Shown here: positions 4,546-13,467 of the stretch, one piece after another
Layout of the letters: each line of letters opens with the position of its first letter
Numbering within the stretch: position 1 is the first letter of the stretch
DNA from: a virus
Lineage: Duplodnaviria; Heunggongvirae; Uroviricota; Caudoviricetes
DNA length: 13,691 nucleotides
Direction: 5' to 3' (one strand)
IMG/VR virus record: IMGVR_UViG_2713896908_000003
Notes under the pieces: model-generated
Database searches by the model: none
What the model saw: only the letters and a program-made list of their open reading frames with translations
Told to the model about the DNA's origin: nothing
Translations under genes and position numbers: made by a program

Positions 4546-5571
4546 TTACGCCAGCTGTACGGACACGAACTCATCAGGGTCAGCCAGCAGCATCAGCGGT
4601 GCTGACTGAATCATGGTGAACTCTCGCGCCGGATCGCCGGATGTCTTCCAGTTTTTCGGATAACGGGGAGACGCATTAATACCCTCACTCAATGCATCCG
4701 CATCCTGAATACAGCCATAAGTGCGCAGACCGCGTGCATGAGTGTTACCCAGCACCATCGTGTTGTCCGGCAGGAAGTTCTTTTTGACGCCGTTTTCCAC
4801 GTACTGTCCGGAATATACGACGATGGCCACATCGCCATACATCCCCTTACAGGACACCGCTTTACCCAGGTCTTTTACCGCTGTCTCCAGCTCGGAATGT
4901 GAGCCGCGACGGGTATCCAGCTTCTCCCTGACGGCTTTGAAGGAACGGAACAGCGCCCAGCCTTTAGGATCAAACACGATGATGTTCACCACGCCGCTGG
5001 CGTTCAGCGCGTAGGCTTCGATATCGTCGGTCGGGTCATACGTGGACTTGTCACGCTTGCTCCACTCCGTGCCGCCGGACTGCGTGATGTTGTTCGCCGC
5101 ACTGCGGCCCATATCCACCTCAACCGGATCGAAGGCTTCACCGGTCATGGTGTATTTGCCCCTGAGCACGGCAGAAACCGCCTGCATCTCTTCGACCTGA
5201 GCAATGGCCAGCTCCTCGTCTCGCATGTTCTGCATGATGATGCGACGGCGGCGGTAAGCCGGGTCCGCCAGATTCTGTGGATCTTCATCCGGCAGGCGAC
5301 GCAGGGTCATCTGCGGATTCACCTCATGCTTCGGCTTGACATAACCCGGCGTAAATTCAGAGGTGGAGCCGCCACGGGAGCGGATAACTTCACCGGAAAC
5401 AATCGGCGAAACGTACAGCGCCATGTTTACCAGCCCCGGAATTTGTGAGAGATAGACTTTCTCCGTGGTGAAGGGATAGCTCTCACGGAAAAAGAGACGC
5501 AGAAACAGCGGATCAAACTTAAATTTCTGCTCATTTGCCGCCAGCAGCTGGGCGGTTGTGTACATCGACAT
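4546..5571 (-). CDS. E: Major capsid protein gpE
   Basis: 341 aa beginning MSMYTTAQLLAANEQKFKFDPLFLRLFF and ending EFVSVQLA, as I recall for lambda gpE (341 aa). Confidence 0.95.
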   Translation of the reverse strand: MSMYTTAQLLAANEQKFKFDPLFLRLFFRESYPFTTEKVYLSQIPGLVNMALYVSPIVSGEVIRSRGGSTSEFTPGYVKPKHEVNPQMTLRRLPDEDPQNLADPAYRRRRIIMQNMRDEELAIAQVEEMQAVSAVLRGKYTMTGEAFDPVEVDMGRSAANNITQSGGTEWSKRDKSTYDPTDDIEAYALNASGVVNIIVFDPKGWALFRSFKAVREKLDTRRGSHSELETAVKDLGKAVSCKGMYGDVAIVVYSGQYVENGVKKNFLPDNTMVLGNTHARGLRTYGCIQDADALSEGINASPRYPKNWKTSGDPAREFTMIQSAPLMLLADPDEFVSVQLA

Positions 5572-10995: not shown

Positions 10996-11515
10996 TCAGC
11001 AACCCCGGTATCAGTTCATCCAGCGCGGCTGCTTTGTTCATGGCTTTGATGATATCCCGTTTCAGGAAATCAACATGTCGGTTTTCCAGTTCCGGAAAAC
11101 GCCGCTGCACCGACAGGGGGATCCCGTCGAGAATACTGGCAATTTCACCTGCGATCCGCGACAGCACGAAAGTACAGAATGCGGTTTCCACCACTTCAGC
11201 GGAGTCTCTGGCATTTTTCAGCTCCTGTGCATCGGCCTGCGCACGCGTAAGTCGATGGCGTTCGTACTCAATAGTCCCTGGCAGGAGATCTGTCTCGCTG
11301 GCCTGCCGCAGTTCTTCAACCTCCCGGCGCAGCTTTTCGTTCTCAATTTCAGCATCCCTTTCGGCATACCATTTTATGACGGCGGCAGAGTCATAAAGCA
11401 CCTCATTACCCTTGCCACCGCCTCGCAGAACGGGCATTCCCTGTTCCTGCCAGTTCTGAATGGTACGGATACTCGCACCGAAAATGTCAGCCAGCTGCTT
11501 TTTGTTGACTTCCAT
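10970..11515 (-). CDS. Nu1: Terminase small subunit gpNu1 (winged-HTH DNA-binding N-terminus)
   Basis: 181 aa beginning MEVNKKQLADIFGASIRTIQNWQEQGMPVLRGGGKGNEVLYDSAAVIKWYAERDAEIENEKLRREVEELRQASE, matching lambda gpNu1; sits immediately downstream of the cos-like sequence. Confidence 0.95.
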
Positions 11516-11540
11516 TGTTCATTCCACGGACAAAAACAGA

Positions 11541-11555
11541 GAAAGGAAACGACAG
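11541..11555. repeat. cosB R-element-like repeat, perfect inverted partner of 11581-11595
   Basis: gaaaggaaacgacag; its reverse complement ctgtcgtttcctttc occurs at 11581-11595 (25-bp spacer). Corresponds to the gpNu1-binding R elements of lambda cosB. Confidence 0.75.
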
Positions 11556-11580
11556 AGGCCAAAAAGCCCGTTTTCAGCAC

Positions 11581-11595
11581 CTGTCGTTTCCTTTC
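11581..11595. repeat. cosB R-element-like repeat, inverted copy
   Basis: ctgtcgtttcctttc, the exact reverse complement of 11541-11555. Confidence 0.75.
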
Positions 11596-11640
11596 TTTTC
11601 AGGGGGGGTTTTAAATAAAAACATGACGTTACGGAGAAGA

Positions 11641-11652
11641 AGAACGGAAACG
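11641..11652. repeat. cosB R3-like element, third and degenerate copy nearest cosN
   Basis: agaacggaaacg shares the GGAAACG core with the 11541 repeat; separated from the others by an A/T-rich stretch (11609-11622) where lambda has the IHF site I1. Confidence 0.6.
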
Positions 11653-11692
11653 CCTTAAACCGGAAAATTTTCATAAATAGCGAAAATCCGCG

Positions 11693-11704
11693 CGCCTTCC
11701 GCCC
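11693..11704 (-). other. cosN: predicted 12-nt cohesive-end sequence (minus strand GGGCGGAAGGCG)
   Basis: The minus strand reads tacg GGGCGGAAGGCG CGCGGATTTTCGCTATTTATGAAAATTTTCCGGTTTAAGGCGTTTCCGTTCTTCT. This is collinear with the lambda left end (GGGCGGCGACCT CGCGGGTTTTCGCTATTTATG...) but the last 6 nt of the 12-mer differ. Confidence 0.65.
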
Positions 11705-11913
11705 CGTAGCCTGTCAGATCGCCGGAAAGAACCCACAAAAAATGAGAATAGTTATCATCTGCATGATGACTCATCAGAACGTGTGTGTACGCAATCTAAC
11801 CACAAGAAATGATCAATTATGACGCAGGCATTGCATCAATTGATCCACATCAAATTAACGTAAAAGCAACTTCAGAAAATACAAACCAGCAACACTGAAT
11901 ATGGGGCAACATT

Positions 11914-12051
11914 ATGTCATCAAAGAACAGAACCCGCAGAACAACAGCCCTCAACATCCGATTTCCAAACCAGATGATTGAACAAATTAACATCGCTTTT
12001 GGTCAGAAAGGTTCAGGAATTTTTTCAGCGTGGATTATTGAAGTCTGCTGA
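11914..12051 (+). CDS. Hypothetical 45-aa protein, ribbon-helix-helix (Arc/MetJ-like) DNA-binding fold predicted; possibly a YlcI/YnfO-type small prophage protein
   Basis: Hand-translated (below the ORF-track cutoff): MSSKNRTRRTTALNIRFPNQMIEQINIAFGQKGSGIFSAWIIEVC. The pattern is a basic N-terminus, a beta-strand LNIRFP, helix A, a G-x-G turn and helix B, comparable to the P22 Arc segment FNLRWPREVLDLVRKVAEENGRSVNSEIYQRVMESF. GGGG lies ~7 nt upstream of the ATG. Same locus position (lysis genes to Nu1 homolog) as small ORFs in E. coli cryptic lambdoid prophages. Confidence 0.45.
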   Translation: MSSKNRTRRTTALNIRFPNQMIEQINIAFGQKGSGIFSAWIIEVC

Positions 12052-12156
12052 AGAAGACTAATTAATGAAAAACATTCTCAATTTGTACCCAACAAAAACA
12101 AACACGACCAGAGCACCTGTTCAGACAGGTTTACTTAAACGACGTATATATGACAC

Positions 12157-12183
12157 AAAAAGCGACTACTAAAGTCGCTTTTT
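12157..12183. terminator. Bidirectional rho-independent terminator between the convergent small ORF and the PerC-like gene
   Basis: AAAA AGCGACT actaa AGTCGCT TTTT: a 7-bp perfect stem (up to 11 bp with the A/T flanks) with a 5-nt loop, an A-tract on one side and a T-tract on the other, so a hairpin plus U-run forms on transcripts from either strand. Confidence 0.6.
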
Positions 12184-12219
12184 ATTATGGTAACAGGCAA
12201 TAACTTTCTCAGATATTTT

Positions 12220-12534
12220 TTAGCATTTTTTTGACCGCGCGTTTCCGGACGTATTCTGTTCTCCTGTCCCTTTATATCGTCGGAATATCCGCCGCTCTTC
12301 AAATCCCATTCCCAACTCAGAATGTAGTCTGTTGACCGCTTGCTTTATTTCTGTCAGATTCACCGGTGCAACCGAAGTCCGGCGCGCCTTACGCAAACAC
12401 TCTGCTCGTTTCTGTGCCGCGATTTTTCTTTTCTGATCATCACTTAGCTGTACCATCACTTTTGCCCATCGTTCAGCCGCTCTCCGGTACAGTCCTTTTT
12501 TCTCCAGACATTCAGCCAGGTGATCATGTAGCAT
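12220..12534 (-). CDS. Small basic regulator, PerC/Pch-family-like (putative transcriptional activator); phage accessory (moron) gene
   Basis: 104 aa, MLHDHLAECLEKKGLYRRAAERWAKVMVQLSDDQKRKIAAQKRAECLRKARR.... The GLYRRAAERW...VM segment resembles the conserved core I recall for PerC of EPEC and the Pch proteins of EHEC lambdoid prophages. GGAGG lies 6 nt upstream of the ATG. Flanked by AT-rich DNA unlike the structural genes. Confidence 0.6.
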   Translation of the reverse strand: MLHDHLAECLEKKGLYRRAAERWAKVMVQLSDDQKRKIAAQKRAECLRKARRTSVAPVNLTEIKQAVNRLHSELGMGFEERRIFRRYKGTGEQNTSGNARSKKC

Positions 12535-12999
12535 AAGTGACCTCCAATTATCTACAGATTACCATTCTAAATTTACCTGCCCTTAATAAGGGAACAATAC
12601 TCCCCCCTCCACAGAAAGACAATAAAACAACAAACAAAAATATAAATAACAAACAGAAATAATCACGCTATTTATTGTTTTTTACTGAAAGAACTATTAC
12701 TGAACAAAAAACGCTGACTATATACTCAAGACCAAATAACTATTCTGCCAATCAAGTATCATAGCAACATAAGGAATTACCGTGTTTTGCCTTCTCAGCC
12801 CATACAATATGAACATATACTTAATACTCTATTGTAATATTTTCATTCATGCGACCCACGTCATTTACCTGTAAATAATATTCAAAATATTTATCACAGA
12901 AATCGTTTTTGGCCATGATCTGAGCACACTATAAAGTCCGGAACTGGCTTTTTGTTAAATCCCCCCTAACACAACCATCAACACCTTTATAACAAAACA
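12535..12999. other. ~465-bp strongly AT-rich untranslated region between the Rz stop and the PerC-like start (probable promoter/leader, candidate nucleoid-protein silencing region)
   Basis: No ORF of 60 aa or more on either strand; long A/T runs such as aacaaacaaaaatataaataacaaacagaaataatc; base composition contrasts sharply with the GC-rich late genes. Confidence 0.5.
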
Positions 13000-13467
13000 T
13001 CACGGTATACACTGGGTACGGATATATTCCTGTGCCCCTTCCAGTTGCTTTTGCATTGTCATCAGCCGTTCTCTGAGGGTGAAATAATCCCGCTCAGCGG
13101 TGTCTGCCAGTCGGGGGCTGGTTGCATTATCCACGCGGGTGGGGCCGGTGGCCTCACGCACGGCTGCGGAGCAACTGGCATTGACCCGCAGGCGCTTACG
13201 ACCAGCGGCAACATCAGCGCGCAGAGTTTCATTTTCAGCTTTCGCATTGGCTAATTCTCTCAAGTACTTTGCATCTAGCGCAGCAACATCACGCTGACGC
13301 TGCTGCATGTCAGCGATGGTGGCGATCGCCTGCTTCAGCTCACTGACTTTTTTATCACGCTGTTCTTTGTAGGCGATGGCATTATCACGGTAATGATTGA
13401 CCGCCAACGACAGGCAGACGATGATGCAGATAACCAGTGTGGAGATAATCGCGGTAACTCTGCTCAT
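13000..13467 (-). CDS. Rz: Inner-membrane spanin Rz (i-spanin)
   Basis: The ORF-track frame reads [43 protein letters not shown]...[34 protein letters not shown], collinear with lambda Rz (MSRVTAIIS...). An N-terminal transmembrane segment is followed by coiled-coil-like sequence. The start is set at the second ATG (13467), which forms an ATGA overlap with the endolysin stop and has GGGGG upstream; 13479 is an alternative. Confidence 0.88.
13062..13247 (-). CDS. Rz1: Outer-membrane lipoprotein spanin Rz1 (o-spanin), embedded in the +1 frame of Rz
   Basis: 61 aa, [61 protein letters not shown]: signal peptide with lipobox VSAC and a proline-rich mature part, collinear with lambda Rz1 (MLKLKMMLC...[29 protein letters not shown]); entirely inside Rz. 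Confidence 0.88.

Follow-up and report, generated by a model that had tools for sequence, protein, structure and literature searches.

Why a very short open reading frame should lie beside the cohesive-end site of a lambdoid prophage, and whether it encodes a complete DNA-binding protein or the remnant of a longer one, is the question raised by the locus described here. The window, by which we mean the whole 13,691-nt stretch of Caudoviricetes DNA that was analyzed, carries this ORF at positions 11914..12051 on the plus strand, where 45 codons followed by a TGA give the product MSSKNRTRRTTALNIRFPNQMIEQINIAFGQKGSGIFSAWIIEVC. A sequence-only reading of the window had described it as an unannotated ORF with a ribbon-helix-helix (RHH) pattern, probably a small autoregulated repressor, forming with a convergent PerC-like gene a compact cassette in place of the bor region of lambda.

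The immediate surroundings of the ORF agree with that description in most respects. A Shine-Dalgarno-like GGGG, read directly from the sequence at 11903..11906 on the plus strand, stands 7 nt 5' of the ATG, and this GGGG-N7-ATG start is invariant in an alignment of five alleles (window, E2865, lambda, DLP12, and Qin). The lambda-type late genes of the window, Rz (13479-13000), nu1 (11515-10970), and A (10995-9070), all lie on the minus strand, as does a PerC-family gene (12534-12220; PF06069, E 1.1e-41) that is indeed convergent with the ORF. Common to these two convergent genes is a bidirectional terminator-like hairpin at 12157..12183, with perfect 11-bp arms flanked by A and T runs, whose predicted folding is favorable on the plus and the minus strand alike (dG -15.0 and -16.8 kcal/mol, z -3.7 and -4.3). 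A terminator scan did not call this hairpin, probably because the A/T runs were absorbed into the stem, and its existence was confirmed by folding. The ORF is monocistronic and runs to this terminator. We also considered a known RNA gene at 11400-13000 and rejected it, an Rfam scan of this region returning nothing near any gathering score.

The identity of the product is settled by profile searches and public records. The Pfam family DUF3950 (PF13132) matches the ORF with 41.1 bits against a gathering cut-off of 25 (E 1.6e-10), aligning residues 21-45 with profile positions 1-25 of 30, or 1-29 of 30 if the stop codon is read through. PHROG 949 matches with E 1.1e-22 over residues 1-45 and profile positions 1-45 of 61, extending to 1-55 of 61 upon read-through. 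Judged by these two scores, the ORF is far above a chance ORF, and the guess of a DUF3950-type family made from the sequence alone was a good one. It was not, however, unannotated: the identical 45-aa protein is already in RefSeq as WP_059222288.1, from a region of E. coli 377323_2f with 99.8% identity. The ORF is therefore a known, already annotated gene of a named family of uncharacterized function, and, with public genomes annotating the same protein, it was missed only through the length cut-off applied by the earlier reader. The exact protein occurs in 527 contigs under a MULTISPECIES Escherichia name, other 45-aa variants are present in E. coli and E. albertii, and full-length cluster members among the matches listed are all 45 aa long. 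In each of eight sampled places the truncated allele lies between Nu1 and the PerC gene, in a lambdoid late region that looks complete. The window protein scores 17.9 bits against the NCBIfam model NF041551 (YlcI_YnfO_N), below the curated cut-off of 30, which is why RefSeq names it "DUF3950 domain-containing protein" and not "YlcI/YnfO family protein."

We describe this allele as truncated from a comparison with its closest full-length relative. The common E. coli allele, with ~91% DNA identity to the window and 642 records, encodes a 74-aa protein (WP_001300236.1), and in the DNA alignment with E. coli E2865 the stop codon of the window ORF (TGA, 12049..12051, plus strand) corresponds to AGA, Arg46, in that allele. 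Downstream of this stop, an in-frame and now untranslated remnant of the tail, RRLINEKHSQFVPNKNKHDQSTCSDRFT, persists at 12052..12138 on the plus strand, covering codons 47-74 and the original TAA at 12136-12138, and equals residues 47-74 of WP_001300236.1 except at two residues. On this alignment, a single AGA-to-TGA change shortens the protein from 74 to 45 aa. The length of 45 codons given in the sequence-only reading is correct, but it is due to a premature TGA at codon 46.

The truncation falls inside the conserved part of the family. Conservation extends over residues 1-50 (...T-[RK]-N-I-R-F-P...N-F-S-A-W-V-x-E-A-C-[RK]-x-x-L), and every relative runs at least five residues beyond Cys45, both in a 35-sequence core alignment and in 39 translated Enterobacterales loci; in the 80 lambda-type viral loci the protein has 64 aa in 77 cases and 50 aa in the remaining three. 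The window protein ends directly after C45 and leaves the core motif C-[RK]-x-[RK]-L (residues 45-50) incomplete. Past residue 50, the family tail is hypervariable, with at least six unrelated tail types. DNA homology of lambda to the window and E2865 stops just past codon 50 (window ~12060-12065; alignment columns ~500-505), and hence a mosaic junction lies within the 3' end of the gene. From the alignments, the variable tail seems to travel with the neighboring accessory module and not with the conserved core.

Lambda itself carries an orthologous ORF of 64 aa at the same place (NC_001416, complement ~48110-48304), with its ATG 199 nt from the right end of the genome and DNA homology to the window extending from cosN via the upstream region to about codon 50. 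The lambda copy is intact, has a different C-terminal tail, and faces lambdap79, a ybcW-like gene, as its convergent partner, where the window has PerC. This homologue has no feature in NC_001416; phage O276 and several lambda-like records do annotate it, in O276 as "YlcI/YnfO family protein." Because lambda has a homologue at the same place, the gene does not replace the bor region, as had been proposed; it is the PerC gene of the window prophage that occupies the place of lambdap79/ybcW, with bor and p78.

In E. coli K-12, the homologues are YlcI (b4589, in DLP12) and YnfO (b4533, in Qin), which share with the window product an N-terminal core of ~80% identity over 45 aa. Like the window ORF, both genes are divergent from a Nu1 homologue (nohD or nohA) across cos, and they have the conserved upstream region and the GGGG-N7-ATG start in common with it. 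The K-12 proteins are 64 and 77 aa long, whereas the window copy stops at codon 46 and has near-invariant residues substituted. ynfO is listed among the uncharacterized y-ome genes, and the searched literature contained no functional study of ylcI, ynfO, or DUF3950, which yielded tables of variants, a list of y-ome genes, and a list of overlapping RNA-seq transcripts; nor did it yield DNA-binding or regulation data on any family member. In K-12 RNA-seq data, ybcW-ylcI appears as a convergent overlapping transcript pair (PMC12288877), and this listing is the only expression evidence found for the family.

The family as a whole is small and confined to Enterobacterales: clustering at 50% identity leaves 103 representatives among 1.84 billion proteins, and a 90% threshold gives 1,479 clusters. 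Its distant relatives, found in Pantoea, Pectobacterium, Serratia, Xenorhabdus, Tatumella, and others, sit in P4-like or PICI-like islands beside integrase, AlpA, primase, or AntA. One such P4-like island (L095) encodes at 4714-5103 a 129-aa fusion of a DUF3950 domain with the first 51 positions of the Terminase_2 small-subunit profile, in an arrangement of integrase, a 69-aa ORF, the oppositely oriented fusion, a 116-aa ORF, and primase; this fusion is present on one metagenomic contig, and a frameshift or an assembly artefact is possible. A match also occurs in species-representative "genomes" from unrelated taxa (Algoriphagus, Colwellia, Kitasatospora, Cohnella, Streptomyces, and others), on contigs of ~3.5 kb or 48.4-48.5 kb, at 82% identity, as for lambda's own copy, and 200-370 nt from the contig end. 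By these sequence features, the contigs look like contamination with lambda control DNA, and the error-laden "ena" variants on ~3.5-kb contigs probably have the same origin, inflating the apparent diversity of the family.

The position next to cos, which the sequence-only reading had noted, is confirmed by alignment with the lambda right end and E2865, which places the 12-nt cohesive-end sequence of cosN, GGGCGGAAGGCG, at 11693..11704 on the minus strand. Relative to lambda (GGGCGGCGACCT), it differs at positions 7, 8, 9, 10, and 12, and the same variant is present in all nine of the other truncated-allele loci and in no other fetched locus. Further toward the ORF, a 7-bp element at 11728-11734 aligns with lambda 48473-48479, GGGTCCT, which we take to be cosQ, and reads GGGTTCT in the window; the underlying G-to-A change at 11730 is private to the window, a G being found in 9/9 other truncated-allele loci. 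According to Feiss et al. (PMC4669245), cosN positions 7-12 are free to vary, and natural variation in cosQ is not apparent. We had considered the unusual cosN overhang as a sign of decay and dropped this idea, all of its changes falling within positions 7-12. The cosQ change, occurring in an element otherwise without apparent variation, suggests from its sequence that the window prophage may be defective in packaging termination.

The layout of nu1 and ylcI diverging from cos is shared by the window, E2865, lambda, O276, DLP12, and Qin. In lambda-type viral loci, cos is present in 76 of 77 and a divergent Nu1 homologue in 65 of 68 with enough flanking sequence, and the distance to cos is 190 nt in 71 of 80. 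Lambdoid ylcI/ynfO genes in general lie ~190-200 nt from cosN and are transcribed away from nu1, in the direction opposing late transcription. Their other neighbor differs from locus to locus, being ybcW, ydfO, or PerC. The two-gene cassette does not survive this comparison: the constant partner of ylcI is cos with nu1, not PerC. We also considered cos linkage as a property of the entire family and rejected it. A lambda-type cos was found within ~4 kb, or within the fetched flanks, at none of 44 distant family loci, where the neighbors are integrase, AlpA, and primase; hence, cos linkage characterizes the lambdoid lineage and not the whole family.

The proposed RHH fold was assessed by structure prediction and profile comparison. 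An AlphaFold2 monomer of the 74-aa allele, built from a 37-sequence alignment, has pLDDT values of 73-89 over residues 11-50 and features an extended N-terminus followed by helices at 19-32 and 37-55, with no strand called, as is to be anticipated for a sheet that assembles only upon dimerization. The model of the 45-aa protein is poorer (pLDDT 64). Foldseek matches with low rmsd or top rank are to the Arc-operator complex, ParB of pCXC100, NikR, and YiiF, each at E >1, and the top match of the 45-aa model is the Arc-operator complex 1par. In hhalign, the family aligns with the Arc-family profile over residues 8-33 (Arc 5-30), pairing NIRFP with NLRWP in the correct register at P 0.0011 and a probability of 21%; alignments to single Mnt and CopG sequences are in the right register with no statistical support. 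Among the Pfam RHH models there is no match to the ORF, and RHH_6 comes up at E 0.092 for one distant relative. Searches of the PDB yielded no RHH protein, giving a single chance-level match with the ORF sequence (E 1.4) and none with the family profile. Taken together, these results point, consistently but weakly, to an RHH fold for the family. In this predicted fold, the stop codon would remove about half of helix B.

A parallel exists with Arc and Mnt of P22 (PF03869), likewise small phage proteins, in which an N-I/L-R-F/W-P strand is followed by helix A in the same register. Helix B, however, is unaligned in hhalign, no Pfam Arc match is obtained, and the genomic setting differs, Arc and Mnt being encoded in the immI region of P22. 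The RHH antitoxins of the TacA type (DUF1778; PDB: 7zg6 and 7zg5) have 11-14% identity to the ORF product, which lacks both a toxin partner and the C-terminal toxin-binding region.

In addition to the lost tail, the remaining core of the window copy has changed at an unusual rate. By Nei-Gojobori counts over the ylcI core (codons 1-45), E2865 and lambda are separated by a dS of 0.50 and a dN of 0.039 (dN/dS 0.08), whereas the window and E2865 are separated by a dS of 0.069 and a dN of 0.091 (dN/dS 1.31; nine nonsynonymous and two synonymous changes). For the same pair, the neighboring genes give a dS of 0.016, a dN of 0.002, and a dN/dS of 0.15 in nu1, of 0.093, 0.007, and 0.07 in A, and of 0.093, 0.023, and 0.25 in perC. 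By this comparison, purifying selection is lost on the window ylcI copy alone, an estimate that rests on 11 changes, and with counts this small neutral decay and positive selection are inseparable.

Using lambda as the outgroup, we assign to the window branch seven substitutions in addition to the nonsense change: T12A, R13L, L29F, a change to G30, N36I, V41I, and A44V. In the 35-sequence family alignment, N36, V41, and A44 are each at least 90% conserved, and almost every member has a basic residue at position 13. Nine of the 12 near-invariant residues are kept (I15, R16, F17, I25, F37, S38, A39, W40, and C45), the other three being those altered by N36I, V41I, and A44V, and the basic residue at position 13 is now leucine. 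Control scores against NF041551 are 37.6 bits for lambda, 34.5 for E2865, 30.5 for E2865 cut to 45 aa, and 17.9 for the window, and therefore the substitutions cost more score than the truncation. The window copy is probably inactive or much weakened. E. coli genomes carrying the locus have a median of four copies, and the relaxed selection on this one could stem from intact paralogues carried in other prophages. Nevertheless, the truncated allele has persisted, as evident from the 527 contigs and the further 45-aa variants, always in an otherwise intact-looking prophage. Ten DNA copies of it show no polymorphism within the ORF and seven outside, which says little either way about further disabling mutations.

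The conserved interval between cosN and the start codon (11705..11913, plus strand, from the five-allele alignment) must hold the predicted promoter of the gene, and a scan of the upstream region in the window, E2865, and Qin alleles gave no sigma-70 consensus promoter at the tool threshold, the candidates picked by eye being weak. This interval is conserved in E2865, lambda, DLP12, and Qin; at 21 positions where these four agree, the window alone is changed. In the window, the interval diverges by 14% against a local dS of 0.07-0.09. Within it, 70-100 nt 5' of the start codon, lies a conserved 33-bp palindrome that we regard as a candidate operator. It reads ATCAATTATTACG-N7-CGTATTAATTGAT in E2865, with 13-nt arms that are 92% complementary, and its arms are 85% complementary in lambda. 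In the window the element (11811..11845, without strand) has five lineage-specific changes and is eroded to its outer 8-nt arms, GATCAATT and AATTGATC, which are perfect.

Other inverted repeats accompany the family elsewhere. In two intact alleles (L002 3233-3253 and L094 3277-3297, both minus strand), the terminator scan calls, on the strand of the late transcript, a hairpin with a T-rich tract opposite codons 5-12 of ylcI; it is not called in the window, where the codon changes behind T12A and R13L sit in the stem. Upstream of a distant family member in Xenorhabdus sp. TCT-1 (L088 3853-3981), palindromes of the sequence TGTTTAAACA are repeated at ~24-nt spacing and look like an operator array. 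Different upstream inverted repeats are seen at other distant loci, e.g., CTGTGCGCACA-N13-TGTGCGCACAG in L060.

Weighing these data, we think it fairly likely that the ORF is a nonsense-truncated, fast-diverging allele of ylcI/ynfO, a gene family that we infer to be RHH, and that the window copy is probably inactive or weakened. The family protein would be a small dimeric RHH DNA-binder, in which a basic N-terminal arm precedes a strand formed by residues ~13-18, and residues 19-32 and 37-55 form helices A and B. Because it is transcribed opposite to the late operon, the gene would be expressed in the lysogen, driven by its own promoter, by analogy with bor, and after induction the antisense late transcript would oppose it. 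The protein probably binds the conserved 33-bp palindrome upstream of its gene and so would regulate itself. In the window copy, helix B is predicted to be cut from ~19 to nine residues, with loss of the conserved basic CRRRL end, and this, together with the replacement of K/R13, N36, V41, and A44 and the eroded palindrome, would probably leave it inactive or much weakened. Overall, what the sequence-only reading observed is confirmed and its interpretation is supported in part, the family guess holding, the fold guess being weakly supported, and the claims of novelty, of a cassette, and of a bor replacement failing.

The interpretation favored in that reading, a complete and functional 45-aa minimal RHH autorepressor forming a two-gene accessory cassette with the PerC-like gene, seems to us unlikely, though it deserves some weight. 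An RHH protein of 45 residues is possible in principle, CopG being 45 aa long. The window protein retains the strand, helix A, and the beginning of helix B, along with the nine near-invariant residues from I15 to C45 listed above, the outer 8-nt palindrome arms match perfectly, and the allele is widespread across its 527 contigs. Pairing with PerC is also frequent in E. coli, where 660 genomes have a place covering at least 80% of a 551-bp two-gene query, and a DUF3950/YlcI-family protein and a PerC-family regulator are annotated together in 30 of 30 listed records. The short length, however, is the product of a nonsense mutation in a 74-aa gene, in a family in which all relatives in the 35-sequence alignment and the 39 loci continue for at least five residues past residue 45. 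The dN/dS of 1.3 against 0.08, the replacement of N36, V41, A44, and K/R13, and the fall in NF041551 score from 30.5 to 17.9 bits at equal length all argue against maintained function, and the constant company of the gene is cos and nu1 and not PerC. The same rise in dN/dS above 1 in the ylcI copy only, seen alongside alterations in both strand residues and palindrome and a 14% divergence of the upstream interval against a local dS of 0.07-0.09, would also fit a switch of specificity under positive selection, in which T12A and R13L co-evolved with the palindrome to create a new repressor-operator pair. We consider such a switch improbable: with only 11 changes, a dN/dS near 1 is equally expected under neutrality, the nonsense codon and N36I, where helix B begins, resemble damage and not retuning, and the palindrome lost its symmetry and gained no new symmetric sequence. 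A combination of these ideas, in which YlcI/YnfO is a lysogen-expressed RHH regulator with its operator between cosQ and its own start and the window allele is a minimal, co-evolving variant of switched specificity, likewise strikes us as a long shot.

Two further readings concern the role of the family rather than the state of this copy. The fixed distance to cos, 190 nt in 71 of 80 lambda-type loci, and the fusion of one relative to the N-terminal DNA-binding part of the Terminase_2 small subunit might suggest an accessory factor for cos or DNA packaging that binds beside cosQ and does not regulate transcription. We regard this as very unlikely, given that the 44 distant loci have no lambda-type cos within ~4 kb and lie in P4-like or PICI-like islands by integrase, AlpA, and primase, not terminase, and that the fusion comes from a single metagenomic contig; the genetically defined cos of lambda, ~200 bp in length, also presumably stops short of both the ylcI homologue and the palindrome. 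Least probable of all is that the ORF, as an RHH protein, represents the orphan antitoxin of a type II toxin-antitoxin pair. As the sequence-only reading had already remarked for the window, a toxin-sized co-directional partner is absent, which holds equally for lambda, DLP12, and E2865; the co-directional gene downstream in Qin is the DUF1398 gene ydfO, not a known toxin, PADLOC reports no defense-system matches, and the gene is monocistronic and runs to a terminator.

The finding is of small weight in itself, the protein being in RefSeq and its family named though uncharacterized. It does show that the reference lambda record NC_001416 is without a conserved gene that related phage records annotate, and it provides, in the RHH fold, a testable hypothesis for ylcI and ynfO, two K-12 genes of uncharacterized function. 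It further presents a prophage lineage in which one small gene is losing constraint while its neighbors nu1, A, and perC are under purifying selection, a loss that the many paralogous copies per genome may explain. If the reading of the family as lysogen-expressed regulators were true, then lambda would possess an overlooked regulatory protein beside cos, and this regulator could influence accessory neighbors, such as PerC-type virulence regulators, via repression or convergent transcription.
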